DNA of 64,000 nt from Escherichia coli (lineage in GTDB: Bacteria > Pseudomonadota > Gammaproteobacteria > Enterobacterales > Enterobacteriaceae). The stretch lies in NCBI RefSeq assembly GCF_003334305.1, contig NZ_QOWS01000001.1; one strand, given 5' to 3'. A program made the position numbers and the translations under genes. The notes beneath the pieces were generated by a model. The model searched no databases and was not told the DNA's origin. It saw only the letters and a program-made list of their open reading frames with translations. Of the stretch, positions 17,484 through 64,000 are shown piece after piece. The stretch's first letter is position 1; each line of letters begins with the position of its first letter.

Positions 17484-17518
17484 TACTCCCCCCCAGTACC
17501 TGATACTACCCCCCAGTA
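17484..17518. promoter_or_regulatory. Tandem RcnR operator sites in the rcnA-rcnR divergent region
   Basis: TACTCCCCCCCAGTA and TACTACCCCCCAGTA, both TACT-G/C tract-AGTA inverted repeats. Confidence 0.75.
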
Positions 17519-17566
17519 GATTAATAGTGCTATGATTTTTCATATTCTTGTTAACCAGGTGTTGCC

Positions 17567-17839
17567 ATGTCTCATACAATCCGTGATAAACAGAAACTGA
17601 AAGCGCGTGCCAGTAAGATTCAGGGCCAGGTCGTGGCGCTCAAGAAAATGCTCGACGAGCCGCACGAATGCGCTGCAGTTTTACAACAGATTGCTGCTAT
17701 CCGTGGCGCGGTAAACGGTCTGATGCGGGAAGTGATTAAAGGTCATCTGACGGAACACATCGTTCACCAGGGGGATGAGCTAAAACGTGAAGAAGATCTG
17801 GATGTCGTTCTGAAGGTGCTGGATTCATATATCAAATAA
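17567..17839 (+). CDS. rcnR: Ni/Co-responsive transcriptional repressor (CsoR/RcnR family)
   Basis: 90-aa ORF divergent from rcnA; sequence [53 protein letters not shown]. Confidence 0.9.
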
Positions 17840-37696: not shown

Positions 37697-37968
37697 GTAT
37701 TCGTATTGAAATTGGCGAACGTTATGTCGTTACCAGTGACAGCTTTCAGTTTATTCTCCACGAGAAAAAGAGAGCGGAAAGCGGTAAAAACGCCGGTCAG
37801 GAATGGCTGGCGGTGGTTGGTTATTACCCGAAATTAAGCCAGCTCGTTTCAGGCCTGATGCATCACGATATTCTGACCGGAAGCGCAAAGTCTTTTGCTG
37901 ATTTAAACGTGCAGGTTGAGCAACTCAGCAAGCGTTGTTCAGAGGCTTTTGGCTCATATGGCCGTTAA
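37693..37968 (+). CDS. Small early protein (P2 orf83-like)
   Basis: 91-aa ORF overlapping the start of A. Confidence 0.5.
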   Translation: MSIRIEIGERYVVTSDSFQFILHEKKRAESGKNAGQEWLAVVGYYPKLSQLVSGLMHHDILTGSAKSFADLNVQVEQLSKRCSEAFGSYGR

Positions 37969-40243
37969 AGCCTCCGGGCGTTTTGTCCCTCCGTCAGCAT
38001 TTGCCGCAGGCACCGGTAAGATGTTTACCGGTGCTTATGCATGGAACGCGCCACGCGAGGCCGTCGGGCGCGAAAGACCCCTTACACGTGACGAGATGCG
38101 TCAGATGCAAGGTGTTTTATCCACGATTAACCGCCTGCCTTACTTTTTGCGCTCGCTGTTTACTTCACGCTATGACTACATCCGGCGCAATAAAAGCCCG
38201 GTGCACGGGTTTTATTTCCTCACATCCACTTTTCAGCGTCGTTTATGGCCGCGCATTGAGCGTGTGAATCAGCGCCATGAAATGAACACCGACGCGTCGT
38301 TGCTGTTTCTGGCAGAGCGTGACCACTATGCGCGCCTGCCGGGAATGAATGACAAGGAGCTGAAAAAGTTTGCCGCCCGTATCTCATCGCAGCTTTTCAT
38401 GATGTATGAGGAACTCAGCGATGCCTGGGTGGATGCACATGGCGAAAAAGAATCGCTGTTTACGGATGAGGCGCAGGCTCACCTCTATGGTCATGTTGCT
38501 GGCGCTGCACGTGCTTTCAATATTTCCCCGCTTTACTGGAAAAAATACCGTAAAGGACAGATGACCACGAGGCAGGCATATTCTGCCATTGCCCGTCTGT
38601 TTAACGATGAGTGGTGGACTCATCAGCTCAAAGGCCAGCGTATGCGCTGGCATGAGGCGTTACTGATTGCTGTCGGGGAGGTGAATAAAGACCGTTCTCC
38701 TTATGCCAGTAAACATGCCATTCGTGATGTGCGTGCACGCCGCCAGGCAAATCTGGAATTTCTTAAATCGTGTGACCTTGAAAACAGGGAAACCGGCGAG
38801 CGCATCGACCTTATCAGTAAGGTGATGGGCAGTATTTCTAATCCTGAAATTCGCCGGATGGAGCTGATGAACACCATTGCCGGTATTGAGCGTTACGCCG
38901 CCGCAGAGGGTGATGTGGGGATGTTTATCACGCTTACCGCGCCTTCAAAGTATCACCCGACACGTCAGGTCGGAAAAGGCGAAAGTAAAACCGTCCAGCT
39001 AAATCACGGCTGGAACGATGAGGCATTTAATCCAAAGGATGCGCAGCGTTATCTCTGCCATATCTGGAGCCTGATGCGCACGGCATTCAAAGATAATGAT
39101 TTACAGGTCTACGGTTTGCGTGTCGTCGAGCCACACCACGACGGAACGCCGCACTGGCATATGATGCTTTTTTGTAATCCACGCCAGCGTAACCAGATTA
39201 TCGAAATCATGCGTCGCTATGCGCTCAAAGAGGATGGCGACGAAAGAGGAGCCGCGCGAAACCGTTTTCAGGCAAAACACCTTAACCAGGGCGGTGCTGC
39301 GGGGTATATCGCGAAATACATCTCAAAAAACATCGATGGCTATGCACTGGATGGTCAGCTCGATAACGATACCGGCAGACCGCTGAAAGACACTGCTGCG
39401 GCTGTTACCGCATGGGCGTCAACGTGGCGCATCCCACAATTTAAAACGGTTGGTCTGCCGACAATGGGGGCTTACCGTGAACTACGCAAATTGCCTCGCG
39501 GCGTCAGCATTGCTGATGAGTTTGACGAGCGCGTCGAGGCTGCACGCGCCGCCGCAGACAGTGGTGATTTTGCGTTGTATATCAGCGCGCAGGGTGGGGC
39601 AAATGTCCCGCGCGATTGTCAGACTGTCAGGGTCGCCCGTAGTCCGTCGGATGAAGTTAACGAGTACGAGGAAGAAGTCGAGAGAGTGGTCGGCATTTAC
39701 GCGCCGCATCTCGGCGCGCGTCATATTCATATCACCAGAACGACGGACTGGCGCATTGTGCCGAAAGTTCCGGTCGTTGAGCCTCTGACTTTAAAAAGCG
39801 GCATCGCCGCGCCTCGGAGTCCTGTCAATAACTGTGGAAAGCTCACCGGTGGTGATACTTCGTTACCGGCTCCCACACCTTCTGAACACGCCGCAGCAGT
39901 GCTTAATCTGGTTGATGACGGTGTTATCGAATGGAATGACCCGGAGGTCGTGAGGGCGCTCAGGGGCGCATTAAAATACGGGCTGAGAACACCAAATCGT
40001 CAGCAGAGAAACGGAAGCCCGTTAAAACCACATGAAATTGCACCATCGGCCAGACTGACCCGGTCGGAAAGAATGCAAATTACCCGTATCCGCGTTGACC
40101 TTGCTCAGAACGGTATCAGGCCGCAGCGATGGGAGCTTGAGGCGCTGGCGCGTGGCGCGACCGTAAATTATGACGGGAAAAAATTCACGTATCCGGTCGC
40201 TGATGAGTGGCCGGGATTCTCAACAGTAATGGCGCGGATATAA
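37958..40243 (+). CDS. A: P2-like replication initiation endonuclease A (rolling-circle)
   Basis: About 761 aa from MAVKASGRF; HxH-type motif TPHWHMMLF and tyrosine pair GYIAKYISK. Confidence 0.9.
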   Translation: MAVKASGRFVPPSAFAAGTGKMFTGAYAWNAPREAVGRERPLTRDEMRQMQGVLSTINRLPYFLRSLFTSRYDYIRRNKSPVHGFYFLTSTFQRRLWPRIERVNQRHEMNTDASLLFLAERDHYARLPGMNDKELKKFAARISSQLFMMYEELSDAWVDAHGEKESLFTDEAQAHLYGHVAGAARAFNISPLYWKKYRKGQMTTRQAYSAIARLFNDEWWTHQLKGQRMRWHEALLIAVGEVNKDRSPYASKHAIRDVRARRQANLEFLKSCDLENRETGERIDLISKVMGSISNPEIRRMELMNTIAGIERYAAAEGDVGMFITLTAPSKYHPTRQVGKGESKTVQLNHGWNDEAFNPKDAQRYLCHIWSLMRTAFKDNDLQVYGLRVVEPHHDGTPHWHMMLFCNPRQRNQIIEIMRRYALKEDGDERGAARNRFQAKHLNQGGAAGYIAKYISKNIDGYALDGQLDNDTGRPLKDTAAAVTAWASTWRIPQFKTVGLPTMGAYRELRKLPRGVSIADEFDERVEAARAAADSGDFALYISAQGGANVPRDCQTVRVARSPSDEVNEYEEEVERVVGIYAPHLGARHIHITRTTDWRIVPKVPVVEPLTLKSGIAAPRSPVNNCGKLTGGDTSLPAPTPSEHAAAVLNLVDDGVIEWNDPEVVRALRGALKYGLRTPNRQQRNGSPLKPHEIAPSARLTRSERMQITRIRVDLAQNGIRPQRWELEALARGATVNYDGKKFTYPVADEWPGFSTVMARI

Positions 40244-40599
40244 TGACAAAGATTCACAAAGTAAAGCTGCACGCAAGATATTTCAACCTTGTGCTGGAGG
40301 AAAAAGAAACGCACAGAATTTAGGGGGATAGCCGTTATCATGTGTATGAAGCACTTGAAATGTATCTGCATCACTTGGGAGTGTGTCAACGGGGAATTTC
40401 CATCTATGTGATTTTTTGAGAGCAATGCAGTGAAGATAAAGATACTTATTATAAATCAATGTGATAGATGGTGCCTCGCAAACGTAAATGATAGTTTTGA
40501 AGCTTCAGGGCTGATGTCGTTCATAAGACTATGTTTACGCTATCATTTATGATAAAAATAATTAATTTTTATCATAAAGATTCAACAGAGGATATGTTG

Positions 40600-42105
40600 A
40601 TGAATCAACTAAAATCAATGAATATCAATAAGTTACTTTTGGATGTTGATAACCCTCGTTTCCCGACGTCAGCAGAAAATCAGCGTGATGCTATTGCCAA
40701 GATGCTTGACTTGCAGTACGACCGCATTTATCGCTTGGCTAAAGATATTGCTTCGAAAGGTTTAGATCCGTCTGAAAACATATTAGTTTATCCTAGTGAA
40801 GAGGAATCTGGCTTTTTCGTCGTTGCTGAAGGTAATCGTCGAGTTACAGCCCTTAAACTTTTACACTCTCCTAGACTTGCACCAACAGAAAAAGCACGGA
40901 AAGCTTTTGAAAAACTTAAGATTACTCAGCTTAAAGATATTAATGTTATAGATAACTGCGTTCTTTTTGACGATGATGAATATGAGCATTGGGTCAATTT
41001 AAAGCATACTGGTCAAAATGCTGGAGTTGGAAGAGTTGAATGGACTGCAACAGAAAAAGCACGACATCTGGCTAGGATGGGTAAGCAGTCATTTGGTAAT
41101 CAAATACTTACATTTATAGAGTTCAATACTGATTTATATAAAGAGATAATTGCTAAAAAAAGACTTTTAAAAATCACAAACATCACGCGTCTTTTTGGTG
41201 ATTTAAAGGTGAGGGATTATTTTAATTTAAAAAGCATTAATGGAGTTCTATACTCATATCAGCCTTATGAACGTTTTTGTGCACAATTAAAAAATATTTT
41301 AGATGTAATGATTGAAGAGGATGATAAAGGTAAGGCTTGTTTTACTGTTAATAGGATTCGTAGCCAAGATGACAGGGTTACATTTATTATTGAACAAAAA
41401 ATAAAACCTTCAGAATCTCTTTTAGATAAGCCGTGGAGTTTATTAGAGCCTAAATCTTTTCTTACAGAGAAAAAACATGATTCTATTGACAAAAATGATG
41501 CATCTGTGAGTGTAAAGAAAGCAGGTCTTTCAGAAGGTGATGCCTTAAAGAATACAGGTGTGGATAAACAGGAAGATGATTATTCTAGACATGTAGGCAC
41601 AGAAGAGAGTAAATCTAAAGTTTCGGGTACGGAACAGAATAAAAACAAGGGAAAAACTCCTCCTAAAGTAGATCGTAATGTGTTGGTGCCATCTTATGTG
41701 AAATTTAATTTTAGAGGGCATAAGAAATGCTCTAGAATATTTAATGAGCTTAAGTCGCATCTGACATTTGATAACACCCCTAATGCTATCTCAATATTGT
41801 TGAGAATATTTATAGATCTCTCTGTAAGCACTTTTGTTGAAGAAAACAAGTTACAATTTAAGGAACCACATAGAACTCCAGGGCTTCATGATAAGGTTAA
41901 AATGTGTGCTAATTTCCTTCGGGAAAATAAAAAGATGACGGGGAGTCAATGTACGGCTGTAATAACTTTCTCGAGCCAAATAACTAAACATGATGGTTCA
42001 TTGCAGCAGTATGTACATAACCCACACTTAATTCCCTCAAAAGAGGCTGTCAACACTGAGTGGGATAACTTTGAGTTGTTATTAAGCCTTATTTGGAGTG
42101 AGTGA
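40600..42105 (+). CDS. ParB/Srx-fold domain protein with disordered Lys/Ser/Glu-rich linker and uncharacterised C-terminal domain (cargo gene 1)
   Basis: ORF 40531-42105 (524 aa); likely start at 40600 (GAGGA seven nt upstream). N-terminus has DVDNPRF and VVAEGNRRVTALKLL, matching ParB box motifs; conspicuously AT-rich against the flanking phage genes. Confidence 0.7.
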   Translation: MNQLKSMNINKLLLDVDNPRFPTSAENQRDAIAKMLDLQYDRIYRLAKDIASKGLDPSENILVYPSEEESGFFVVAEGNRRVTALKLLHSPRLAPTEKARKAFEKLKITQLKDINVIDNCVLFDDDEYEHWVNLKHTGQNAGVGRVEWTATEKARHLARMGKQSFGNQILTFIEFNTDLYKEIIAKKRLLKITNITRLFGDLKVRDYFNLKSINGVLYSYQPYERFCAQLKNILDVMIEEDDKGKACFTVNRIRSQDDRVTFIIEQKIKPSESLLDKPWSLLEPKSFLTEKKHDSIDKNDASVSVKKAGLSEGDALKNTGVDKQEDDYSRHVGTEESKSKVSGTEQNKNKGKTPPKVDRNVLVPSYVKFNFRGHKKCSRIFNELKSHLTFDNTPNAISILLRIFIDLSVSTFVEENKLQFKEPHRTPGLHDKVKMCANFLRENKKMTGSQCTAVITFSSQITKHDGSLQQYVHNPHLIPSKEAVNTEWDNFELLLSLIWSE

Positions 42106-42174
42106 GATTTGTCTACATCTGGACATGGATGTCCAGAAACTGATAAACTACAAAATCAGGAATGAGAGGGATTT

Positions 42175-43059
42175 ATGAAATTTTATACTCCATTAAGATA
42201 CCCCGGCGGGAAAGGTAAGTTATCTTACTTTTTAAAAGATGTTATTGAAAAAAACTCGTTGAATGATGGAGCATATGCAGAACCTTACGCTGGTGGTGCA
42301 GGGGTGGCTTTAGAATTATTATTGGAAGAGTATGTCCGTAAAATCTATATAAATGATGCAGATTTTGCTGTTTATTCTTTTTGGTCATCTGTTGTTAGTG
42401 ATACTGATGAGCTTTGCCGACTTATTAGCCGAGCAAAGATAGATATGGATGAATGGTCTTTTCATCGCTATGTTATTTCGAATCCTTCTGAGTTTACTAA
42501 GCTTGAGGTTGGCTTTGCTGCGTTTTTCTTAAATAGAACAAATCGTTCAGGTATTCTCAAGGCGGGGGTTATAGGCGGGAAATCACAAAATGGAAAATGG
42601 AAAATGGATGTTCGCTTTAACAGGGCGGATTTAATTTCAAGAATTGAGAAGATAGCAAATTATAATCAAAGAATAGTAGTAACTAATCTGGATGCTTTGG
42701 ATTTTCTTGATGTCTTGAATTTTATGGATAATATGGGAAAGGTGGATAAAAATAAAATTCTTTTGTATTTGGATCCTCCTTACTATATTAAAGGGCAAGG
42801 GCTTTACAGGAATTTTTATGAGCATGATGATCATGTATTGGTTATGAAGAAACTCACAGAAATTAATTTCCCAAATTGGCTTGTTTCTTATGATAACGCT
42901 AAGGAAATTAAAGATATTTATAATGGATTTCCGCAAGTTGAGTATTCATTGCAATATACAGCGCATCTCAAAAAATCTGGAGAGGAAGTGATGATTTTTT
43001 CTCCTGAAATAATTATTCCTAATACCCTGAAAGGGGGCTCAATGCCAACTTGCGCCTGA
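42175..43059 (+). CDS. Dam-family (D12 class) N6-adenine DNA methyltransferase (cargo gene 2)
   Basis: 294 aa; motifs collinear with E. coli Dam: YPGGKGK (Dam WAGGK), EPYAGGAGV (Dam EPFVGAGSV), FFLNRTNRSG (Dam LYLNRYGYNG) and DPPYY (residues about 200-204); AT-rich. Confidence 0.85.
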   Translation: MKFYTPLRYPGGKGKLSYFLKDVIEKNSLNDGAYAEPYAGGAGVALELLLEEYVRKIYINDADFAVYSFWSSVVSDTDELCRLISRAKIDMDEWSFHRYVISNPSEFTKLEVGFAAFFLNRTNRSGILKAGVIGGKSQNGKWKMDVRFNRADLISRIEKIANYNQRIVVTNLDALDFLDVLNFMDNMGKVDKNKILLYLDPPYYIKGQGLYRNFYEHDDHVLVMKKLTEINFPNWLVSYDNAKEIKDIYNGFPQVEYSLQYTAHLKKSGEEVMIFSPEIIIPNTLKGGSMPTCA

Positions 43060-43393: not shown

Positions 43394-44428
43394 TCAGCCG
43401 TTGTCAGTGTCCAGTGAGTAGTTTTTAAAGCGGATGACCTCCTGACCGAGCCAGCCGTTTATCTCGCGGATCCTGTCCTGTAACGGGATAAGCTCATTGC
43501 GGACAAAGACCTTTGCCACTTTCTCAATATCACCCAGCGACCCGACGTTCTCCGGCTTGCCCCCCATCAACTGAAAGGGGATGCGGTGCGCGTCCAGCAG
43601 GTCAGTGGCGCTGGCTTTTTTGATATTAAAAAAATCGTCCTTCGTCGCTACTTCACTGAGGGGGATAATTTTAATGCCGTCAGCTTTCCCCTGTGGCGCA
43701 TAGAGAAACAGATTTTTAAAGTTGTTGCGGCCTTTCGACTTAACCATGTTTTCGCGAAGCATTTCGATATCGTTGCGATCCTGCACGGCATCGGTGACGT
43801 ACATGATGTATCCGGCATGGGCGCCATTTTCGTAATACTTGCGGCGGAACAGCGTGGCCGACTCATTCAGCCAGGCAGAGTTAAGGGCGCTGAGATATTC
43901 CGGCAGGCCGTACAGCTCCTGATTAATATCCGGCTCCAGCAGGTGAAACACGGAGCCGGGCGCGAAAGGTGTCGGCTCATGGAAGGACGGCACCCACCAG
44001 TAAACATCCTCTTCCACGCCACGGCGGGTATATTTTGCCGGTGAGGTTTCCAGTCTGATGACCTTACCGGTGGTGCTGTAACGCTTTTCCAGAAACGCAT
44101 TACCGAACACCAGAAAATCCAGCACAAAGCGGCTGAAATCCTGCTGGGAAAGCCACGGATGCGGAATAAACGTTGAAGCCAGAATATTGCGTTTAACGTA
44201 AATCGGCGAGCTGTGATGCACGGCAGCACGCAGGCTTTTTGCCAGACCGGTAAAGCTGACCGGCGGCTCATACCATCTGCCGTTACTGATGCACTCGACG
44301 TAATCCAGAATGTCACGGCGGTCGAGTACCGGCACCGGCTCGCCAAAGGTGAATGCCTCCATTTTCGGGGCGCTGGCGGTCATTGTTTTTGCCGCAGGTT
44401 GCGGTGTTTTCCCTTTTTTCTTGCTCAT
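43394..44428 (-). CDS. Q: Portal protein
   Basis: 344 aa, P2 gpQ length and position. Confidence 0.9.
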   Translation of the reverse strand: MSKKKGKTPQPAAKTMTASAPKMEAFTFGEPVPVLDRRDILDYVECISNGRWYEPPVSFTGLAKSLRAAVHHSSPIYVKRNILASTFIPHPWLSQQDFSRFVLDFLVFGNAFLEKRYSTTGKVIRLETSPAKYTRRGVEEDVYWWVPSFHEPTPFAPGSVFHLLEPDINQELYGLPEYLSALNSAWLNESATLFRRKYYENGAHAGYIMYVTDAVQDRNDIEMLRENMVKSKGRNNFKNLFLYAPQGKADGIKIIPLSEVATKDDFFNIKKASATDLLDAHRIPFQLMGGKPENVGSLGDIEKVAKVFVRNELIPLQDRIREINGWLGQEVIRFKNYSLDTDNG

Positions 44429-52645: not shown

Positions 52646-53431
52646 TTATGAGTGATTTTTATTTGATGCTTTGTATTCTAAAACCTTCTTATTGGCGTAA
52701 AAGAATTTTGTATATGACAGGAATATAACCAGACCTGAAGTGAAATAGACGAGGGATAGTATTAATAATGCTTTTTTGTGACTGTTATTATCTTTAATCT
52801 CCTGGCTTAACCATTCGGAGTCCTCCTCGTTTAGCTGTAAGAGCTTATTGCAGGCGATCTCAGGAAGTGTGTCTTTTATAAATACGTTTTGCAGTTTCTT
52901 GCAATCGGCAAGGCTATAAGTTTTATTAAATTCAACTGCTTTATTTTTGAAGGATAAAAGAACTTTGTCACTATAAACATAGTACATCATGTTTTTATAT
53001 GGTATGCCTATGGCATCCCTTACTATAACGGATTGTTTGTTGTGTATGTAACATGCGAGGAGAATGTAAAAAATACTGGTCAGAATTACAATTATTGTTT
53101 TAATTATGTGTGGTGGTTTTGTTATGTCACCCCAGATGCGAGTAAGGAAAAAATACGATGTTTTTAGTTTTCCATCAATCAGTCCCTGCTGTATCATTCT
53201 CACATTTTCAATGCCTGATACATTGATTCCGTTAATTATTTTAAATAGTTGAATGTCGCGCCACTCGCGGTCAAGTCTTTTTAATTTTTTGTCTGAATAT
53301 CCAAAATTGAAATAATGTGCAATAAGCCTCATAAGGTTACTTTTACCAAAGCTAAAAAATGCTAATACTGCAAAGCTACAAAGGAAAAAAACGATTAGCC
53401 CCCACACATTAGTCACATTATAGCTGACCAT
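52646..53431 (-). CDS. AT-rich predicted membrane protein of unknown function, antisense to the late operons (cargo)
   Basis: 261-aa ORF between S and V; about three hydrophobic helices (IVFFLCSFAVLAFFSF, IIKTIIVILTSIFYILLACYI, ALLILSLVYFTSGLVIFLSY); Lys/Asn/Ile-rich. Confidence 0.65.
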   Translation of the reverse strand: MVSYNVTNVWGLIVFFLCSFAVLAFFSFGKSNLMRLIAHYFNFGYSDKKLKRLDREWRDIQLFKIINGINVSGIENVRMIQQGLIDGKLKTSYFFLTRIWGDITKPPHIIKTIIVILTSIFYILLACYIHNKQSVIVRDAIGIPYKNMMYYVYSDKVLLSFKNKAVEFNKTYSLADCKKLQNVFIKDTLPEIACNKLLQLNEEDSEWLSQEIKDNNSHKKALLILSLVYFTSGLVIFLSYTKFFYANKKVLEYKASNKNHS

Positions 53432-54498: not shown

Positions 54499-55407
54499 AT
54501 GCCGATTATCGACCTGAACCAGCTACCCGCACCGGATGTGGTCGAGGAGCTGGACTTTGAAACCATTCTTGCTGAACGCAAGGCGACACTGATTTCCCTT
54601 TACCCGGAAGACCAGCAGGAGGCGGTCGCCCGTACCCTGACGCTGGAATCCGAGCCTCTCGTCAAACTGCTGGAGGAAAATGCTTATCGTGAGCTTATCT
54701 GGCGTCAGCGTGTGAATGAGGCTGCACGGGCGGTGATGCTGGCCTGTGCCGCCGGTAATGACCTTGATGTGATTGGTGCCAATTACAACACCACACGCCT
54801 GATTATCACCCCGGCAGATGATTCGACCCTCCCGCCGACACCGGCCGTGATGGAATCTGACACGGATTATCGTCTGCGTATTCAGCAGGCGTTTGAAGGT
54901 TTAAGCGTCGCCGGGTCGGTGGGGGCTTATCAGTATCATGGTCGAAGTGCCGACGGGCGTGTCGCAGATATCTCTGTCACCAGTCCTTCTCCGGCCTGCG
55001 TCACTATCTCTGTGCTGTCACGTGAAAATAACGGCGTCGCATCCGAAGACCTGCTGGCCGTGGTGCGTAACGCCCTTAATGGCGAGGACGTCAGGCCGGT
55101 GGCCGACCGCGTGACCGTGCAGTCTGCCGCCATTGTTGAATATCAGATAAACGCCACGCTTTACCTTTACCCTGGTCCCGAAAGCGAACCCATCCGCGCT
55201 GCTGCCGTGAAAAAACTGGAAGCGTATATCACGGCACAGCACCGGCTGGGGCGCGACATCCGTCTGTCTGCCATTTATGCCGCTTTGCATGTGGAGGGCG
55301 TGCAGCGTGTCGAGCTGGCCGCACCACTGGCCGACATCGTGCTCAACAGTACGCAGGCGTCTTTCTGTACCGAATACCGCGTCGTGACCGGAGGCTCGGA
55401 TGAGTGA
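54499..55407 (+). CDS. J: Baseplate protein J
   Basis: 302 aa; position. Confidence 0.88.
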   Translation: MPIIDLNQLPAPDVVEELDFETILAERKATLISLYPEDQQEAVARTLTLESEPLVKLLEENAYRELIWRQRVNEAARAVMLACAAGNDLDVIGANYNTTRLIITPADDSTLPPTPAVMESDTDYRLRIQQAFEGLSVAGSVGAYQYHGRSADGRVADISVTSPSPACVTISVLSRENNGVASEDLLAVVRNALNGEDVRPVADRVTVQSAAIVEYQINATLYLYPGPESEPIRAAAVKKLEAYITAQHRLGRDIRLSAIYAALHVEGVQRVELAAPLADIVLNSTQASFCTEYRVVTGGSDE

Positions 55408-56011
55408 TTCGCGCCTGCTGCCGACCGGCTCATCACCGCTTGAAATTGCTGCCGCGAAAGCCTGTGCGGAAATTGAAAAAACGCCGGTCAGTATTCGTGA
55501 GCTGTGGAACCCGGACACCTGCCCGGCAAATCTGCTGCCGTGGCTGGCGTGGGCCTTTTCGGTCGACAGGTGGGATGAAAAGTGGCCGGAAGCGACAAAA
55601 CGCGCCGTTATCCGCGATGCCTATTTCATCCACTGTCATAAGGGTACTGTCGGCGCAATCCGGCGTGTTGTGGAGCCGCTCGGCTATCTGATTGAAGTGA
55701 GGGAGTGGTGGCAGCTCAACGAGGAGCCGGGGACGTTCCGTATCGTTGTTGGCGTGCTTGAGCAGGGTATTACCGAAGAAATGTATCTGGAGCTGGAACG
55801 TCTCGTTGCTGATGCAAAACCGGCGAGCCGCCATCTGACGGGACTGGCTATCAGTTTAAGTACAACCGGCAACATTTTTGCCGGAACGGGATGCTATCAC
55901 GGTGACGCCCTGACGGTTTATCCCTACACCCCGGAGGCCATTATTGTCGGAGGGGATTATTTCCCGGCCTCGGTCATTCATTTAATTGATAACCTGAGAG
56001 TAAACGCATGA
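55400..56011 (+). CDS. I: Baseplate protein I
   Basis: 203-aa ORF overlapping J end and H start. Confidence 0.8.
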   Translation: MSDSRLLPTGSSPLEIAAAKACAEIEKTPVSIRELWNPDTCPANLLPWLAWAFSVDRWDEKWPEATKRAVIRDAYFIHCHKGTVGAIRRVVEPLGYLIEVREWWQLNEEPGTFRIVVGVLEQGITEEMYLELERLVADAKPASRHLTGLAISLSTTGNIFAGTGCYHGDALTVYPYTPEAIIVGGDYFPASVIHLIDNLRVNA

Positions 56012-57687
56012 CAGTGAAATACTACGCCATTCTGACTAATCAGGGCGCAGCACGACTGGCTAACGCGACGATGCTCGGCAGTAAGCTGAATCTGACGCAA
56101 ATGGCCGTTGGTGATGCGAATGGTGTATTACCGACACCAGACCCGGCACAGACAAAACTGATTAACCAGAAACGCATTGCACCGCTGAATCTTCTGAGTG
56201 TTGACCCTAACAATCAGAGCCAGATTATTGCGGAGCAAATTATCCCTGAAAACGAGGGAGGATTCTGGATCCGTGAGATTGGGCTTTATGATGATGAAGG
56301 CGTACTCATTGCGGTGGCGAACTGCCCGGAAACGTACAAACCGCAGTTGCAGGAAGGCAGTGGTCGTACCCAGACTATCCGCATGATTCTGGTTGTCTCG
56401 AATACCGAAGCCATCACGCTGAAAATCGATCCGTCGGTGGTACTGGCGACCCGTAAATATGTGGATGACAAAATCTCAGAACACGAACAGTCACGACGAC
56501 ACCCGGATGCATCGCTGACCGCAAAAGGTTTTACTCAGTTAAGCAGCGCAACCAACAGCACGTCTGAAACACTGGCCGCAACGCCGAGAGCGGTAAAGAT
56601 CGCGTATGACCTTGCTAACGGGAAATATACTGCACAGGACGCGACCACAGCGCGAAAAGGTCTTGTCCAGCTCAGTAGCGCCACCAACAGCGATTCTGAA
56701 ACGCTTGCGGCAACGCCAAAGGCGGTAAAGACAGCATATGACCTTGCTAACGGGAAATATACCGCACAGGACGCGACCACAGCGCGAAAAGGCCTTGTCC
56801 AGCTCAGCAGCGCCACTAACAGCACGTCAGAAACGCAGGCTGCCACACCAAAAGCCGTGAAGGCTGTATATGACCTTGCCAATGGAAAACAACCTGCCGA
56901 CGCCACACTGACCGCACTGGCAGGCCTTGCCACTGCGGCAGACAAACTACCGTATTTTACGGGGAATGATACAGCCAGCCTGACAACCCTGACTAATGTT
57001 GGACGGGATATTCTGGCTAAAACAAGCAAACAGGAGGTTATTCATTATCTTGGTTTGGGAGCTACAAACGGATACGTGGGACGCTTGGTGAATACCCGGG
57101 TTTTCACGTCATCAGGTACGTACACCCCGACACCAGGAACAAAACGGATCAGGGTCACAATAACGGGCGGCGGTGGCGGAGGGGGTGGCTGCCAGGCTAT
57201 ATCCAGTAACGAAACGTTTTTCGGTGCTGGCGGTGGGGCCGGAGGGACAGTAATCACCATACTGACCCCGACACAGAATAGTTATCCTGTCACTATCGGC
57301 GCAGGTGGGGCCGGCGGCGTTGGTGCGACGAACGGCCTCAAGGGCGGTGATAGCTCGTTCGGATCGGTAATAGCCCCTGGTGGTGAAGGCGGCGGAAAAG
57401 TAGGAGTCACAAACACAAACGGCGGTAACGGAGGCGTACCGAATATTGGCGATATCCGCATCACTGGTGGAGATGGAGGCGACGGTCAGTCCGGGAATAT
57501 CAGCGTCAGCGGTGAAGGCGGTGCATCGTACTGGGGAGGCGGTGGACGTGCAGGCGCTGGCGGTGGCGTTAGAGGCAGGGCATTTGGTTCAGGCGGAGGT
57601 GGTGCATACGATGCAGGTTATAGCGGAACCAGTATGACGGGCGGGAAAGGTGCTGATGGGGTTTGTATTATCGAGGAGTTTGCATAA
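56008..57687 (+). CDS. H: Tail fibre protein with internal tandem repeats and Gly-rich C-terminal domain
   Basis: 559 aa; conserved N-terminus MTVKYYAILTNQGAARLANA; three ~44-aa repeats (QLSSATNS.SETLAATP.AVK.AYDLANGKYTAQDATTARKG); C-terminal third dominated by GGxGG runs. Confidence 0.88.
   Translation: MTVKYYAILTNQGAARLANATMLGSKLNLTQMAVGDANGVLPTPDPAQTKLINQKRIAPLNLLSVDPNNQSQIIAEQIIPENEGGFWIREIGLYDDEGVLIAVANCPETYKPQLQEGSGRTQTIRMILVVSNTEAITLKIDPSVVLATRKYVDDKISEHEQSRRHPDASLTAKGFTQLSSATNSTSETLAATPRAVKIAYDLANGKYTAQDATTARKGLVQLSSATNSDSETLAATPKAVKTAYDLANGKYTAQDATTARKGLVQLSSATNSTSETQAATPKAVKAVYDLANGKQPADATLTALAGLATAADKLPYFTGNDTASLTTLTNVGRDILAKTSKQEVIHYLGLGATNGYVGRLVNTRVFTSSGTYTPTPGTKRIRVTITGGGGGGGGCQAISSNETFFGAGGGAGGTVITILTPTQNSYPVTIGAGGAGGVGATNGLKGGDSSFGSVIAPGGEGGGKVGVTNTNGGNGGVPNIGDIRITGGDGGDGQSGNISVSGEGGASYWGGGGRAGAGGGVRGRAFGSGGGGAYDAGYSGTSMTGGKGADGVCIIEEFA
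56509..56904 (+). repeat. Three tandem ~132-bp coding repeats inside H
   Basis: Near-identical units beginning GCGACCACAGCGCGAAAAGG at 56641 and 56773, with a more diverged first copy from about 56509. Confidence 0.8.
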
Positions 57688-58097
57688 TGAATGCGTCATA
57701 TGCAGTTATTGAAAATGGGATGGTTGTGAATGTCATTGTCTGGGATGGCGAGGATGAATTCACTGTGCCGGATAATCAGCAGCTCATTAATATTTCTGAT
57801 ATCAGTGAGCAGCCCGGAATCGGCTGGGTGTATTCAGACGGGGGATTTACTGCGCCACCCACTCCGGAACGTTCTCATGATGAACTGGTAGCTGACGCTG
57901 AACAGAAAAAACAGTCGCTGTTAGACGCAGCAATGGTCAATATCAGCGTGATTCAGTTAAAGCTGCAGGCCGGGCGCAAACTGACGCAAGAGGAAACTAC
58001 CCGACTTAACGTTGTGCTGGATTATATCGACGCTGTGACGGCAACAGATACCAGCACCGCACCGGATGTCATCTGGCCTGAACTGCCGGAGGCGTAG
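57687..58097 (+). CDS. G: Tail fibre assembly chaperone
   Basis: 136 aa from MNASYAVIENG; start overlaps the H stop. Confidence 0.8.
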   Translation: MNASYAVIENGMVVNVIVWDGEDEFTVPDNQQLINISDISEQPGIGWVYSDGGFTAPPTPERSHDELVADAEQKKQSLLDAAMVNISVIQLKLQAGRKLTQEETTRLNVVLDYIDAVTATDTSTAPDVIWPELPEA

Positions 58098-58197
58098 ACC
58101 ATTCAATATCTGACGTACCGGAAGTATCGGACCGCTCCGGTGCGTACAGGTAATCCAGCCACAAATTATATTGCGCCAGTACCTCAGACCTGCCGGG

Positions 58198-58398
58198 CTA
58201 TTGCTTAGTGTTCATGTGTTTATTGGCCTGATTAATCAGTAGCTGTCTTTCTGGTCGTGTGGATCCTGCAAATCCTGAATGGTCGGAAATACCGCAGGCG
58301 GGCTGATTGCCCGCCTTTTTTATCTGTTGTTTCATCCACTGACCAGCCAGGTCAAATAGCGTCTCATGCTCTGCACAACAGAAAATAGTTGCACCCAT
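58198..58398 (-). CDS. Small antisense ORF at the G/FI junction (P2 Z/fun position); coding status uncertain
   Basis: 66-aa ORF in the gap between G and FI; contains the plus-strand terminator hairpin. Confidence 0.3.
   Translation of the reverse strand: MGATIFCCAEHETLFDLAGQWMKQQIKKAGNQPACGISDHSGFAGSTRPERQLLINQANKHMNTKQ
58297..58321 (+). terminator. Rho-independent terminator after the V-G tail operon
   Basis: GGCGGGC-TGATT-GCCCGCC hairpin followed by TTTTTT. Confidence 0.7.
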
Positions 58399-58417
58399 TA
58401 ACCACGGAGTTAAACGG

Positions 58418-59608
58418 ATGAGTGACTATCATCACGGCGTGCAGGTGCTGGAGATTAACGACGGCACCCGCGTCATTTCCACCGTATCCACTGCCATTGT
58501 CGGCATGGTCTGCACGGCCAGCGATGCGGATGCGGAAACCTTCCCCCTCAATAAACCTGTGCTGATTAGCAATGTGCAGAGCGCAATTGCAAAGGCCGGT
58601 AAAAAAGGCACGCTGGCGGCGTCGCTGCAGGCCATCGCTGACCAGTCAAAACCGGTCACCGTTGTCGTGCGTGTGGAAGACGGCACCGGCGACGACGAAG
58701 AAACGAAACTCGCGCAGACCGTTTCCAATATCATCGGCACCACTGACGAAAACGGTCAGTATACCGGACTGAAAGCCCTGCTGGCGGCAGAGTCGGTAAC
58801 CGGTGTTAAACCGCGTATTCTCGGTGTGCCGGGACTGGACACCAAAGAGGTGGCTGTTGCACTGGCATCAGTCTGCCAGAAGCTGCGCGCTTTCGGGTAT
58901 ATCAGCGCATGGGGCTGTAAAACCATTTCCGAGGTGAAAGCCTACCGCCAGAATTTCAGTCAGCGTGAGCTGATGGTCATCTGGCCGGATTTCCTCGCAT
59001 GGGATACGGTCACCAGTACCACCGCCACCGCGTATGCCACCGCCCGTGCGCTGGGTCTGCGTGCCAGAATCGACCAGGAGCAGGGCTGGCATAAAACGCT
59101 GTCCAACGTCGGGGTAAACGGTGTTACCGGCATCAGCGCGTCCGTATTCTGGGATTTGCAGGAGTCCGGTACCGATGCTGACCTGCTTAACGAGTCTGGC
59201 GTCACAACGCTGATTCGACGCGACGGTTTCCGATTCTGGGGTAACCGTACCTGCTCTGATGACCCGCTGTTCCTCTTTGAAAACTACACCCGCACCGCGC
59301 AGGTGCTGGCCGACACGATGGCTGAGGCGCACATGTGGGCGGTGGACAAGCCCATCACCGCAACGCTGATTCGCGACATCGTTGACGGCATCAATGCCAA
59401 ATTCCGTGAGCTGAAAACAAACGGCTATATCGTGGATGCGACCTGCTGGTTCAGCGAAGAATCCAACGATGCGGAAACCCTTAAGGCCGGAAAACTGTAT
59501 ATCGACTACGACTATACCCCGGTGCCTCCTCTTGAAAACCTGACCCTGCGCCAGCGTATTACCGATAAATACCTGGCAAATCTGGTCACTTCGGTTAACA
59601 GCAATTAA
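58418..59608 (+). CDS. FI: Contractile tail sheath protein
   Basis: 396 aa; position. Confidence 0.9.
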   Translation: MSDYHHGVQVLEINDGTRVISTVSTAIVGMVCTASDADAETFPLNKPVLISNVQSAIAKAGKKGTLAASLQAIADQSKPVTVVVRVEDGTGDDEETKLAQTVSNIIGTTDENGQYTGLKALLAAESVTGVKPRILGVPGLDTKEVAVALASVCQKLRAFGYISAWGCKTISEVKAYRQNFSQRELMVIWPDFLAWDTVTSTTATAYATARALGLRARIDQEQGWHKTLSNVGVNGVTGISASVFWDLQESGTDADLLNESGVTTLIRRDGFRFWGNRTCSDDPLFLFENYTRTAQVLADTMAEAHMWAVDKPITATLIRDIVDGINAKFRELKTNGYIVDATCWFSEESNDAETLKAGKLYIDYDYTPVPPLENLTLRQRITDKYLANLVTSVNSN

Positions 59609-59620
59609 GGAGCCTGACCG

Positions 59621-60139
59621 ATGGCAATGCCGCGCAAACTCAAGTTAATGAACGTCTTTCTGAACGGCTACAGCTATCAGGGCGTTGCAAAGTCCGTCAC
59701 GCTGCCAAAACTGACCCGTAAGCTCGAAAACTATCGCGGTGCTGGGATGAACGGCAGCGCACCGGTAGACCTCGGCCTTGATGACGATGCGCTGTCAATG
59801 GAGTGGTCGCTCGGGGGCTTCCCGGATTCGGTTATCTGGGAGCTTTACGCCGCAACCGGTGTGGATGCCGTGCCGATTCGTTTTGCTGGCTCTTACCAGC
59901 GTGACGATACCGGCGAAACGGTGGCCGTCGAAGTGGTCATGCGTGGCCGTCAGAAAGAAATCGACACCGGCGAGGGTAAACAGGGAGAAGACACCGAGTC
60001 GAAAATCTCCGTGGTCTGTACCTATTTCCGGCTGACGATGGACGGTAAGGAGCTGGTCGAAATCGACACCATCAACATGATTGAGAAGGTGAACGGCGTC
60101 GACCGGCTGGAGCAACACCGCCGAAATATCGGCCTGTGA
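59621..60139 (+). CDS. FII: Tail tube protein
   Basis: 172 aa; position. Confidence 0.9.
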   Translation: MAMPRKLKLMNVFLNGYSYQGVAKSVTLPKLTRKLENYRGAGMNGSAPVDLGLDDDALSMEWSLGGFPDSVIWELYAATGVDAVPIRFAGSYQRDDTGETVAVEVVMRGRQKEIDTGEGKQGEDTESKISVVCTYFRLTMDGKELVEIDTINMIEKVNGVDRLEQHRRNIGL

Positions 60140-60195
60140 TTTTCATCCGGTCAGCCTGGCTGACCGGTTAACCCTGATTCAGAAGTGAGAAAACC

Positions 60196-60471
60196 ATGAA
60201 CAAAGAAAATGTGATTACCCTGGACAATCCGGTCAAGCGTGGTGAGCAGGTTATCGAACAGGTCACGCTGATGAAACCTAATGCCGGGACGCTGCGCGGT
60301 GTCAGTCTGGCTGCGGTCGCAAACTCCGAAGTCGATGCGCTGATTAAGGTGCTGCCGCGCATGACTGCACCGATGCTGACCGAGCAGGAAGTCGCCGCGC
60401 TGGAACTGCCTGACCTTGTGGCGCTGGCCGGTAAGGTGGTCGGTTTTTTGTCGCCGAACTCGGTGCAGTGA
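60196..60471 (+). CDS. E: Tail assembly chaperone E
   Basis: 91 aa ending ...KVVGFLSPNSVQ. Confidence 0.85.
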   Translation: MNKENVITLDNPVKRGEQVIEQVTLMKPNAGTLRGVSLAAVANSEVDALIKVLPRMTAPMLTEQEVAALELPDLVALAGKVVGFLSPNSVQ

Positions 60472-60623
60472 CGTTTCCGAAAAATCTGTCGGTCGATGAC
60501 CTGATGGCGGATGTGGCAGTGATATTTCACTGGCCGCCATCAGAACTGTATCCCATGAGCCTGACCGAACTCATCACATGGCGCGAAAAGGCGCTCCGGC
60601 GAAGCGGAAACACGAATGAGTAA
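60196..60623 (+). CDS. E': E+E' fusion produced by programmed -1 ribosomal frameshift
   Basis: Slippery run TTTTTTG at 60444-60450 inside E; the -1 frame stays open to TAA at 60621-60623, overlapping the T start; total about 142 aa. Confidence 0.75.
60444..60450 (+). other. Programmed -1 frameshift slippery heptamer (T6G)
   Basis: GGTTTTTTG in frame G-GTT-TTT-TG near the 3' end of E. Confidence 0.75.
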
Positions 60624-63063
60624 CAATGTAAAATTACAGGTATTGCTCAGGGCTGTTGACCAGGCATCCCGCCCGTTTAAATCCATCCGTACAGCGAGCA
60701 AGTCGCTGTCGGGGGATATCCGGGACACACAAAAATCACTGCGCGAGCTGAACGGTCACGCATCCCGTATTGAGGGATTTCGCAAGACCAGCGCACAGCT
60801 CGCCGTGACTGGTCATGCACTTGAGAAGGCACGGCTGGAAGCCGAAGCCCTTGCCACACAGTTTAAAAATACCGAACGTCCGACCCGTGCTCAGGCGAAA
60901 GTGCTGGAATCCGCAAAGCGAGCGGCGGAGGACTTACAGGCGAAATATAACCGCCTGACGGATTCCGTTAAACGCCAGCAGCGGGAGCTGGCCGCTGTGG
61001 GAATTAATACCCGCAATCTTGCACATGATGAGCAGGGACTGAAAAACCGTATCAGTGAAACCACCGCACAGCTTAACCGGCAGCGTGACGCGCTGGCGCG
61101 TGTCAGTGCGCAACAGGCAAAACTTAATGCAGTAAAACAGCGTTATCAGGCCGGAAAGGAACTGGCCGGAAATATGGCCTCAGTGGGCGCTGCCGGTGTG
61201 GGGATTGCTGCTGCGGGAACGATGGCCGGAGTTAAGTTGCTGATGCCCGGTTATGAGTTTGCGCAGAAAAACTCAGAATTGCAGGCCGTGCTCGGTGTGG
61301 CAAAAGACTCCGCCGAAATGACCGCACTCCGCAAACAGGCGCGCCAGCTCGGCGACAACACCGCCGCCTCAGCGGATGATGCGGCTGGTGCGCAGATTAT
61401 CATTGCGAAAGCGGGTGGAGATGCTGCGGCTATTCAGGCGGCAACGCCGGTCACGCTGAATATGGCGCTGGCGAACCGCCGCACGATGGAAGAAAACGCC
61501 GCCCTGCTGATGGGGATGAAATCCGCCTTTCAGCTTTCAAACGATAAGGTCGCTCATATCGGGGATGTTCTCTCCATGACGATGAACAAAACCGCCGCCG
61601 ATTTTGACGGTATGAGCGATGCGCTGACCTATGCTGCACCTGTGGCAAAAAATGCCGGTGTCAGCATTGAAGAAACCGCCGCAATGGTCGGAGCGCTGCA
61701 TGATGCAAAAATCACAGGCTCAATGGCGGGGACGGGAAGCCGTGCCGTATTAAGCCGCCTGCAGGCACCGACGGGAAAAGCATGGGATGCACTCAAAGAG
61801 CTTGGAGTGAAAACCTCAGACAGCAAGGGAAACACCCGGCCAATATTTACCATTCTGAAAGAAATGCAGGCCAGTTTTGAGAAAAACCGGCTCGGTACTG
61901 CCCAGCAGGCTGAATACATGAAAACTATTTTCGGGGAGGAGGCCTGCTCAGCCGCTGCCGTGCTGATGACTGCCGCCTCAACCGGAAAGCTGGACAAACT
62001 GACCGCTGCGTTTAAAGCCTCAGACGGGAAGACCGCCGAGCTGGTAAATATCATGCAGGACAACCTAGGCGGTGACTTTAAAGCGTTTCAGTCCGCTTAT
62101 GAGGCGGTGGGGACTGACCTGTTTGACCAGCAGGAAGGCGCGCTGCGTAAGCTCACGCAGACGGCCACAAAGTATGTGTTAAAACTCGACGGCTGGATAC
62201 AGAAAAACAAATCACTGGCGTCAACCATCGGCATCATTGCCGGCGGTGCACTGGCGCTTACTGGCATCATCGGTGCCATTGGCCTCGTAGCCTGGCCGGT
62301 TATCACCGGCATCAATGCCATCATCGCGGCAGCAGGCGCAATGGGGGCAGTCTTCACGACGGTTGGCAGTGCTGTTATGACCGCCATCGGGGCTATTAGC
62401 TGGCCGGTTGTGGCCGTGGTGGCTGCCATTGTCGCCGGTGCGTTGCTTATCCGTAAATACTGGGAGCCTGTCAGCGCATTCTTTGGTGGTGTGGTTGAAG
62501 GGCTGAAAGCGGCATTTGCGCCGGTGGGGGAACTGTTCACGCCACTGAAGCCGGTGTTTGACTGGCTGGGTGAAAAGTTACAGGCCGCGTGGCAGTGGTT
62601 TAAAAACCTGATTGCCCCGGTCAAAGCCACCCAGGACACCCTGAACCGTTGCCGTGACACGGGCGTCATGTTCGGGCAGGCACTGGCTGACGCGCTGATG
62701 CTGCCGCTTAATGCGTTCAACAAACTGCGCAGTGGTATTGACTGGGTACTGGAAAAACTCGGTGTTATCAACAAAGAGTCAGACACACTTGACCAGACCG
62801 CCGCCAGAACTCAAGCCGCCACGTATGGCAGCGGTGGTTATATTCCGGCGACCAGCTCTTATGCAGGCTATCAGGCTTATCAGCCGGTCACGGCACCGGC
62901 TGGCCGCTCTTATGTAGACCAGAGTAAAAACGAATATCACATCAGCCTGACGGGTGGTACTGCGCCGGGGACACAGCTTGACCGCCAGTTACAGGATGCG
63001 CTCGAAAAATACGAGCGGGATAAACGTGCGCGCGCCCGTGCCAGCATGATGCATGACAGTTAA
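60616..63063 (+). CDS. T: Tail tape measure protein
   Basis: 815 aa; coiled-coil N-terminal region and Gly/Ala-rich hydrophobic stretch. Confidence 0.9.
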   Translation: MSNNVKLQVLLRAVDQASRPFKSIRTASKSLSGDIRDTQKSLRELNGHASRIEGFRKTSAQLAVTGHALEKARLEAEALATQFKNTERPTRAQAKVLESAKRAAEDLQAKYNRLTDSVKRQQRELAAVGINTRNLAHDEQGLKNRISETTAQLNRQRDALARVSAQQAKLNAVKQRYQAGKELAGNMASVGAAGVGIAAAGTMAGVKLLMPGYEFAQKNSELQAVLGVAKDSAEMTALRKQARQLGDNTAASADDAAGAQIIIAKAGGDAAAIQAATPVTLNMALANRRTMEENAALLMGMKSAFQLSNDKVAHIGDVLSMTMNKTAADFDGMSDALTYAAPVAKNAGVSIEETAAMVGALHDAKITGSMAGTGSRAVLSRLQAPTGKAWDALKELGVKTSDSKGNTRPIFTILKEMQASFEKNRLGTAQQAEYMKTIFGEEACSAAAVLMTAASTGKLDKLTAAFKASDGKTAELVNIMQDNLGGDFKAFQSAYEAVGTDLFDQQEGALRKLTQTATKYVLKLDGWIQKNKSLASTIGIIAGGALALTGIIGAIGLVAWPVITGINAIIAAAGAMGAVFTTVGSAVMTAIGAISWPVVAVVAAIVAGALLIRKYWEPVSAFFGGVVEGLKAAFAPVGELFTPLKPVFDWLGEKLQAAWQWFKNLIAPVKATQDTLNRCRDTGVMFGQALADALMLPLNAFNKLRSGIDWVLEKLGVINKESDTLDQTAARTQAATYGSGGYIPATSSYAGYQAYQPVTAPAGRSYVDQSKNEYHISLTGGTAPGTQLDRQLQDALEKYERDKRARARASMMHDS

Positions 63064-63077
63064 GGAGGTGACGAAAA

Positions 63078-63557
63078 ATGATGCTCGCGTTAGGTATGTT
63101 TGTTTTTATGCGCCAGACACTGCCACACCAGACCATGCAGCGTGAATCGGATTATCGCTGGCCGTCAAATTCCCGTATCGGTAAACGGGATGCCTACCAG
63201 TTTCTCGGTGTGGGTGAGGAAAACATCACGCTGGCCGGTGTGCTTTATCCCGAACTGACCGGCGGAAAGCTGACGATGACCACGCTCAGGCTGATGGCAG
63301 ATGAAGGTCGGGCGTGGCCGTTGCTGGATGGCACCGGCATGATTTACGGCATGTATGTCATCAGCAGGGTGAGTGAAACAGGGAGTATTTTCTTTGCAGA
63401 CGGCACACCCCGAAAAATTGATTTTACGCTGTCGCTCACCCGCGTTGACGAATCACTGGCCGCGCTTTATGGCGATATCGGTAAACAGGCGGAATCGCTC
63501 ATCGGTAAGGCTGGCAGTATGGCGACTAAATTCACAGGTATGACGGGGGCGGGATAA
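63078..63557 (+). CDS. U: Tail protein U
   Basis: 159 aa; position. Confidence 0.88.
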   Translation: MMLALGMFVFMRQTLPHQTMQRESDYRWPSNSRIGKRDAYQFLGVGEENITLAGVLYPELTGGKLTMTTLRLMADEGRAWPLLDGTGMIYGMYVISRVSETGSIFFADGTPRKIDFTLSLTRVDESLAALYGDIGKQAESLIGKAGSMATKFTGMTGAG

Positions 63558-64000
63558 TGCTGGATGCGCTGACATTTGATGCAGGCAGTACGCTGACGCC
63601 GGATTACATGCTGATGCTCGACAGCAGGGATATTACCGGCAATATCAGCGACCGTCTGATGAGCATGACTCTGACGGATAACCGGGGCTTTGAAGCTGAC
63701 CAGCTTGATATTGAACTGAACGATGCCGACGGGCAGGTCGGGCTGCCGGTTCGTGGCGCTGTCCTGACGGTGTATATCGGCTGGAAAGGTTTTGCCCTGG
63801 TATGCAAAGGGAAATTTACCGTTGATGAGGTTGAACACCGGGGCGCACCGGATGTGGTCACCATCCGCGCCCGGAGTGCAGATTTTCGCGGGACGCTCAA
63901 TTCCCGCCGTGAAGGCTCCTGGCATGACACCACGCTCGGTGCGATTGTTAAGGCGATAGCCACCCGTAACAGGCTGGAAGCCAGTGTCGCTCCGTCACTG
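63557..64000 (+). CDS. D: Tail protein D (late control region), 3'-truncated by window edge
   Basis: ATG overlapping the U stop; translation MLDALTFDAGSTLTPDYMLMLDSRDITGNISDRLMSMTLTDNRGFEADQLDIELNDADG. Confidence 0.85.
   Translation, partial: MLDALTFDAGSTLTPDYMLMLDSRDITGNISDRLMSMTLTDNRGFEADQLDIELNDADGQVGLPVRGAVLTVYIGWKGFALVCKGKFTVDEVEHRGAPDVVTIRARSADFRGTLNSRREGSWHDTTLGAIVKAIATRNRLEASVAPSL

Follow-up and report, generated by a model that had tools for sequence, protein, structure and literature searches.

We consider it very probable that the interval between the tail fiber assembly gene G and the tail sheath gene FI of a P2-like Escherichia coli prophage is a mosaic scar of recombination, to which two ordinary control signals are joined, and that the 66-amino acid (aa) antisense open reading frame (ORF) crossing it is a by-product of this arrangement and no gene. 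Everything in the interval is of a known kind, and the pseudogene that it contains is already flagged in public annotation.

Organization of the G–FI junction

The late tail region of the prophage occupies positions 55400–64000 of the 64-kb stretch of DNA analyzed here (hereafter, the window), and the ORF list gives its gene order as I, H, G, FI, FII, E, and T. The annotation of a genome that is 100% identical over 57900–58500 agrees with this I-to-T order and designates FI a ‘phage tail sheath protein’. As originally predicted, a gap of 320 bp (58098–58417) separates the G stop codon, TAG at 58095–58097, from the FI start codon, an ATG at 58418. Comparison with phage and E. coli records divides this gap into four pieces, each of which has different relatives (Table 1). 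The left two-thirds are the remains of two tail fiber assembly genes, as judged by sequence comparison, and the right half is the control module of the F operon. The gap is not truly intergenic, because the minus-strand tfa' pseudogene begins within the 3' end of G and reaches into it. The original prediction had allowed that the gap might contain nothing but the terminator and the late promoter of FI; in essence that description holds for its functional content, and it misses the tfa' and old-G remains. Of 5426 complete E. coli genomes, 34 have the exact arrangement of this junction and 1648 have the F-operon control module.

Table 1. Features of the G–FI junction and constituent segments of the 66-aa antisense ORF, in window coordinates.
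Feature	Position	Strand	Description	Basis
Gene G	57687–58097	+	136-aa tail fiber assembly protein	ORF list; phrog_188, E 6.6e-31
tfa' pseudogene remnant (piece 1)	58069–~58253	−	Inverted tail fiber assembly gene	BLASTP, tblastn, DNA alignment, phrog_188, PGAP
Old-G relic (piece 2)	~58254–58296	+	Last ~14 codons of an old P2-type G	Reads VDPANPEWSEIPQ
Intrinsic terminator (piece 3)	58296–58321	+	Predicted to close the V-W-J-I-H-G late operon	Pattern scan, RNA fold
PF activator region (piece 4)	58324–58350	+	Predicted Ogr-type activator binding region	Alignment to the P2 record (activator site 17555–17583)
PF core, −10-like (piece 4)	58381–58386	+	GAAAAT	Homology only
PF core, putative start (piece 4)	58392–58394	+	CAC	Homology only
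FI ribosome-binding site	58406–58409	+	GGAG, 8 nt before the ATG	Read from sequence
Gene FI	58418–59608	+	Tail sheath gene, first of the F operon	ORF list
66-aa ORF, codons 1–25		−	Antisense to PF (core plus activator site)	
66-aa ORF, codons ~26–34		−	Antisense to the terminator	
66-aa ORF, codons ~35–48		−	Antisense to the old-G relic	
66-aa ORF, codons 49–66		−	tfa' remnant, ending at the tfa' amber mutation	

Gene G and the remains of two assembly genes

In the present G, a C-terminal half of the conventional Tfa type is joined to an N-terminal part of ∼60 aa that is of another type; residues 1 to ∼60 match two separate PHROGs of unknown function, phrog_14370 and phrog_18617. Public records list the exact G sequence as ‘tail fiber assembly protein’, in a cluster of 451 members, and the annotation of strain MMC-J-0050 has it as an intact protein of 136 aa (WP_134736816.1). 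PGAP flags the gene as a pseudogene with a ‘missing N-terminus’ in several other genomes. The composition of the protein suggests that G is a hybrid chaperone paired with the glycine-rich C-terminus of H and not a broken gene. Gene H itself (56008–57687, plus strand) contains a tandem repeat of 132 bp (44 aa) in 2.6 copies at 56542–56879. In strain EF7-18-58, which is identical to the window across the G–FI junction, H is longer by 132 bp, so the copy number of the repeat differs among near-identical prophages.

The first piece of the gap is recognized once the frame of the 66-aa ORF is followed beyond its TAG, where it runs on as ...KQ-stop-PGRSEVLAQYNLWLDYLYAPERSDTSGTSDIEWSTPPAVQAR-stop. When the first of these stops is read as Trp, the remnant aligns with the last 77 of the 147 residues of the tfa' product of Escherichia phage P2-T22 (KC618326), with 64% identity and E values of 2e-31 by BLASTP and 1e-24 by tblastn. 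Profile searches return phrog_188 (E 1.1e-13) and phrog_3792 (E 1.3e-8), and the conserved C-terminal Tfa region is present. The remnant keeps only residues 71–147 of its homologue, the first ∼70 codons being gone, and it carries two further lesions: a change of TGG to TAG at 58198–58200 (base 58199), which places an in-frame amber codon where the homologue has Trp, and a 21-bp in-frame deletion (7 codons) between 58186 and 58187, identified by DNA alignment. PGAP annotates a partial tail fiber assembly pseudogene at this stretch in all five E. coli genomes checked and adds ‘internal stop’ in four of them. The loss of the 5' half, the in-frame TAG, the 7-codon deletion, and the incomplete and internal-stop flags together identify the remnant as a pseudogene. 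Both the amber codon and the 21-bp deletion are common to all four relatives compared, and these lesions are therefore old. The remnant converges on G and overlaps its 3' end by 29 nt, with the tfa' stop codon at 58069–58071; the same 29-nt convergent overlap of G and tfa' occurs in P2-T22 and in Salmonella phage MET_P1_103_31.

The second piece is what is left of an older G gene of the P2 type. The sequence VDPANPEWSEIPQ that it encodes is a typical end of a tail fiber assembly protein, and tblastn matches the C-terminal 19 aa of P2 gpG to positions 58241–58297 on the plus strand (74% identity, E 1e-4). The relic also aligns to the 3' end of G in phage STYP1, and strain VTB97420v has a tfa gene fragment whose 3' end shares 95% identity with it; the translation of this fragment ends ...SRVDPANPEWPEMPQEVV at its stop codon. 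Three of the four same-junction relatives (STN0717-20, R1, and 504239) retain a CAATAA stop (...EWSEIPQ-stop) five bases before the hairpin; a 9-bp deletion has removed this stop in the window and in isolate 58. The join between tfa' and old G falls at ∼58250–58256, where a TTCTGGT-like sequence occurs in both parental sequences. This coincidence suggests that illegitimate recombination, perhaps at a short microhomology resembling TTCTGGTC, may have produced the join.

Terminator and late promoter

The plus-strand terminator that had been predicted in the gap is present as a sequence feature. A pattern scan locates a stem-loop at 58296–58316, followed by six T at 58316–58321. The stem consists of 8 pairs, 7 of them G-C, and closes a loop of 5 nt; the RNA folds with −18.1 kcal/mol (z = −3.9), better than each of 200 shuffled sequences. 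The minus strand can form the hairpin too (−19.0 kcal/mol, z −4.1), but its stem is not followed by a T-run, and termination is thus expected on the plus strand only. In the VWJIHG operon, G is the final gene (PMC3931495). An identical hairpin stands directly after an intact G in Salmonella phage STYP1 and in E. coli M45, and the hairpin is present in other relatives. In most of the 1648 genomes that share the F-operon control module, homology begins at 58294/58295, the foot of the hairpin, which marks the hairpin as the left edge of this conserved module.

The corresponding hairpin in P2 (NC_001895, ∼17514–17559) has decayed (−11.3 kcal/mol, z −0.08), and the P2 record annotates a different putative terminator after G, beside fun(Z). 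These features are consistent with insertion of fun(Z) between G and the ancestral terminator in P2. Where G abuts PF, the ancestral terminator of G has stayed intact; in P2, which has fun(Z) and a second terminator in between, it has decayed.

Only 3 nt separate the terminator from PF, the predicted late promoter of the sheath operon. P2 late promoters depend on Ogr and have the consensus TGT-N12-ACA (PMC3931495), and in PF such a dyad is expected some 55 nt ahead of the transcription start. The element TGT-N12-CCA at 58328–58345 falls in the same alignment columns as the TGT-N12-CCA of P2 and, like the P2 element, matches five of the six specified bases of the consensus. The P2 record places the start of the F operon at 17626–17628, corresponding to −26 to −24 from the FI ATG, and the same CAC is found at that distance here. 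The bases of the FI ribosome-binding site are invariant in all aligned relatives, and the start of the FI gene is identical to that of P2 FI. Over 58295–58417, which includes the PF piece at 58322–58417, the region is 97.6% identical to the sequence ahead of FI in phages L-413C and P2-EC67 and in many Peduovirus genomes; as a sequence variant, PF in this prophage is of the L-413C/P2-EC67 type. Identity with P2 is 83% over the annotated activator site and start, with the −10 region and the leader alike; PF and the FI leader together are 89.5% identical to those of STYP1. Sequence pattern and homology to the annotated P2 sequence predict an active terminator at the hairpin and, in PF, a late promoter activated by Ogr/Delta. 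The ogr gene would be located beyond the end of the window.

Origin of the junction

From the present arrangement we infer an order of events in which a cassette was replaced at this locus, as opposed to one in which a larger invertible segment was reduced by deletion. The prophage backbone would once have carried G, the hairpin, PF, and FI in direct succession, as STYP1 does still. It may then have received a fiber cassette, consisting of the C-terminus of H, a new G, and part of tfa', from a donor phage with an invertible fiber segment of the kind found in P2-T22 and MET_P1_103_31. The right junction at ∼58250–58256 would have been made by illegitimate recombination. The hairpin, originally 3' of the older G, would now end V-W-J-I-H-G transcription ∼200 nt after the present G.

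In P2-T22 and MET_P1_103_31, the interval between H and FI holds G, an inverted tfa', and a serine DNA invertase, with H' annotated in T22 only. Inverted crossover sites of 26–31 bp are situated in H and upstream of the invertase, and the T22 pair forms a perfect 31-nt inverted repeat. Across the whole window, no serine invertase was found (best tblastn hit of the T22 invertase, E 0.44), and H' is likewise absent (best tblastn E 0.22). The region 55900–58500 contains no inverted repeat of at least 18 nt, and no sequence in the window matches a crossover site within three mismatches. A generic AAACCNNGGTTT search gave hits at chance level, and a working invertible segment was rejected on these grounds. 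The invertase, H', and the paired crossover sites did not arrive or did not survive, so the fiber is fixed in one orientation.

Within H, a half-relic of an invertase crossover site is kept at 57040–57065 on the plus strand (TTGGTTTGGGAG, encoding LGLG). It differs from the T22 site at 8 of 26 bases and has no partner site.

If the lineage had once possessed an entire invertible segment (G, tfa', H', and the invertase), an internal deletion, in place of the import of a partial cassette, would also account for the sharing of 78–92% identity between phages that carry the complete segment and the 3' end of G plus the tfa' remnant, as well as for the half-relic that H retains. However, in the invertase-bearing relatives homology to the window begins only at ∼58327, past the hairpin, and the recombinase gene is directly upstream; these relatives therefore have neither the hairpin nor the old-G relic, and a simple deletion cannot create what they lack. 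We regard internal deletion as unlikely for this reason, and import of a cassette as the simplest account of the junction.

A further reading concerns why the scar might persist. The tfa' stub and the hairpin could serve as a right-hand homology arm for swaps of H–G cassettes with unrelated phages. The idea draws on the wide sharing of the stub among E. coli prophages and on the hairpin as a fixed left edge of the F-operon module: the G/tfa' junction and stub are ∼83–93% identical to tail fiber loci of more than 2,300 complete E. coli genomes, and these loci include lambdoid, e14-type, and P2-type prophages. Retention for such a role seems improbable to us, and translation of the antisense ORF family phrog_11095, which overlaps PF, is much less likely again. 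Recombination that left a scar next to fixed control signals is the account that we prefer for the junction as a whole.

The 66-aa antisense ORF

The minus-strand ORF of the original prediction does exist. It extends over 58198–58398, passes through the hairpin, starts with ATG, and specifies the 66-aa peptide MGATIFCCAEHETLFDLAGQWMK. Since it reads backwards through each of the four pieces in turn, it is a concatenation of unrelated sequences (Table 1). Its ATG (58396–58398) is located 2–4 nt from the putative PF start, and the CAT that the plus strand has at this position is part of the FI leader CCCATTAACC, which is invariant. When the 320 bp were shuffled 2000 times, an ORF of 66 aa or more arose within the gap in 235 cases with ATG starts only and in 419 cases with any start (12–21%). 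By way of comparison, shadow ATG-ORFs of at least 66 aa occur at ∼1.2 per kb in the late region of the prophage.

The frame is not conserved. From the same ATG, four E. coli prophages that share the junction at 97–99% identity have frames of 69, 49, 11, and 11 codons. In P2 and T22, a 1-bp indel near the −10 region alters the whole peptide (MGEWYFQL... vs MGATIFCC...), and in MET_P1_103_31 a stop follows after 3 codons of the antisense frame. The frame from this ATG is open for 45–76 codons in several P2-like phages, mildly above expectation. We judge the 66-aa ORF to be a chance reading frame.

Residues 1–35 alone match a PHROG, phrog_11095, of unknown function, and the match halts at the mosaic boundary at 58295. 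As a genuine protein family phrog_11095 was considered and rejected: the match is limited to the antisense of PF and the terminator, and the sequence is frameshifted among PF variants and truncated in relatives. The family evidently collects pipeline-called ORFs that are antisense to PF; phage 11W, for example, has a 45-aa ORF call on the PF antisense. The exact 66-aa sequence is public only as a ‘hypothetical protein’ (33 contigs, in an 8-member cluster). These deposits and the phrog_11095 match indicate that automatic annotators do call the ORF.

The ORF had been proposed as a possible Z/fun-like lysogenic conversion gene. That proposal fails on sequence, as BLASTP against P2 Fun(Z) returns E 8.6 over 17 residues, which is no homology, and the 64-kb window as a whole contains no Fun(Z) homologue (best tblastn E 3.0, in an unrelated place). 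A minus-strand promoter and a ribosome-binding site were sought as well, and neither was found. No sigma-70-like promoter is predicted on either strand over 57600–58700, and the sequence before the ATG (CTCCGTGGTTAATG) contains no Shine–Dalgarno element. PADLOC and NCBIfam searches gave no match for the ORF or for its read-through form.

More broadly, a true small accessory gene for lysogenic conversion or defense, with a promoter inside the 5' end of FI, would share its strand with P2 fun(Z), would occupy a known hotspot, and would begin with ATG; its deposition as a hypothetical protein and the match of residues 1–35 to phrog_11095 could be added in its favor. We nevertheless hold such a gene to be highly improbable. 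It would have to do without similarity to Fun(Z), a match to a defense family, a promoter-like site, and a Shine–Dalgarno element; its 5' 75 nt are the reverse reading of PF, and its final 18 codons come from a pseudogene, up to the nonsense mutation of the latter. Its length is within chance, with close same-junction relatives having 49, 11, and 11 codons, and the PF variants of the P2 type yield an unrelated, frameshifted peptide, as against the stop after 3 codons in MET_P1_103_31. That the minus strand of the gap instead gives rise to a regulatory antisense RNA, which would damp PF and FI or stabilize lysogeny with the hairpin as a structural element, is scarcely credible: the hairpin is equally stable on that strand and the module at 58295–58417 is highly conserved, but the strand has no promoter and no T-run after its hairpin, the plus-strand terminator, PF, and the FI leader account for the conservation in full, and an Rfam scan of 57500–58900 with E up to 1 gave two sub-threshold chance matches only and no family (the best match, with E 0.35, scored 19.9 bits, where the gathering score is 81.3).

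Accessory genes elsewhere in the prophage

A two-gene PD-Lambda-5 anti-phage system is detected by PADLOC at 40531–43059 on the plus strand, in the old/tin hotspot, which is the position between a gpA-like gene (37916–40243) and the portal gene (43394–44428). Its component A has 524 aa (E 6e-168), and component B, a methyltransferase, has 294 aa (E 3e-121). The prophage thus carries its accessory cargo at the old/tin and not at the Z/fun position; the Z/fun hotspot in this prophage holds no cargo gene. Separately, a 261-aa ORF at 52646–53431 on the minus strand lies between S-like and V-like late genes, where P2 has orf30. Over its full length it matches phrog_2407, of unknown function (E 4e-148), and PADLOC gives no match.

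Comparison with known systems

The Z/fun position of P2-like phages is a recognized hotspot; a recent survey reports that tail fiber and assembly genes are swapped there and that it often carries a DNA invertase (bioRxiv 10.1101/2024.10.15.618418), and that survey means that the general phenomenon is already known. The G–FI junction is not discussed in PMC13100340 or PMC9122126. The junction described here provides an example of how the exchange of a tail fiber cassette leaves nested gene fragments beside fixed control signals. Such scars yield ORFs that are deposited as hypothetical proteins or gathered into PHROG families, and the value of the present analysis lies mainly in correct annotation.

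In P2 itself, Fun(Z) (NP_046777.1) is a 528-aa protein encoded on the minus strand between G and FI, and the note in the P2 record states that fun(Z) blocks the growth of phage T5 and confers FUdR sensitivity in the lysogen. The 66-aa ORF resembles P2 fun(Z) in being located on the minus strand of the G–FI interval, which is a property of the locus and not of the protein. Unlike the 528-aa Fun(Z), it has 66 aa and no sequence similarity. In P2, fun(Z) is situated between the G stop codon and the decayed hairpin; here, the tfa remains fill that slot.

Fiber switches operated by serine invertases include the G segment of Mu with Gin, the C segment of P1 with Cin, and the P segment of e14 with Pin. 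The segments of the T22 and MET_P1_103_31 type have the same convergent arrangement of tfa and tfa' as the window, in which the C-terminal tfa' sequence has 64% protein identity to that of T22. In contrast to the switch of those phages, the mutated C-terminal tfa' stub in the window is a fossil and forms no working switch. A simpler junction is that of STYP1 and of P2-like prophages of the E. coli M45 type, in which the end of G stands immediately before the identical hairpin, and PF and FI follow. By comparison, the window keeps only the last ∼14 codons of that G, and a different G and the tfa' stub are found upstream of them.
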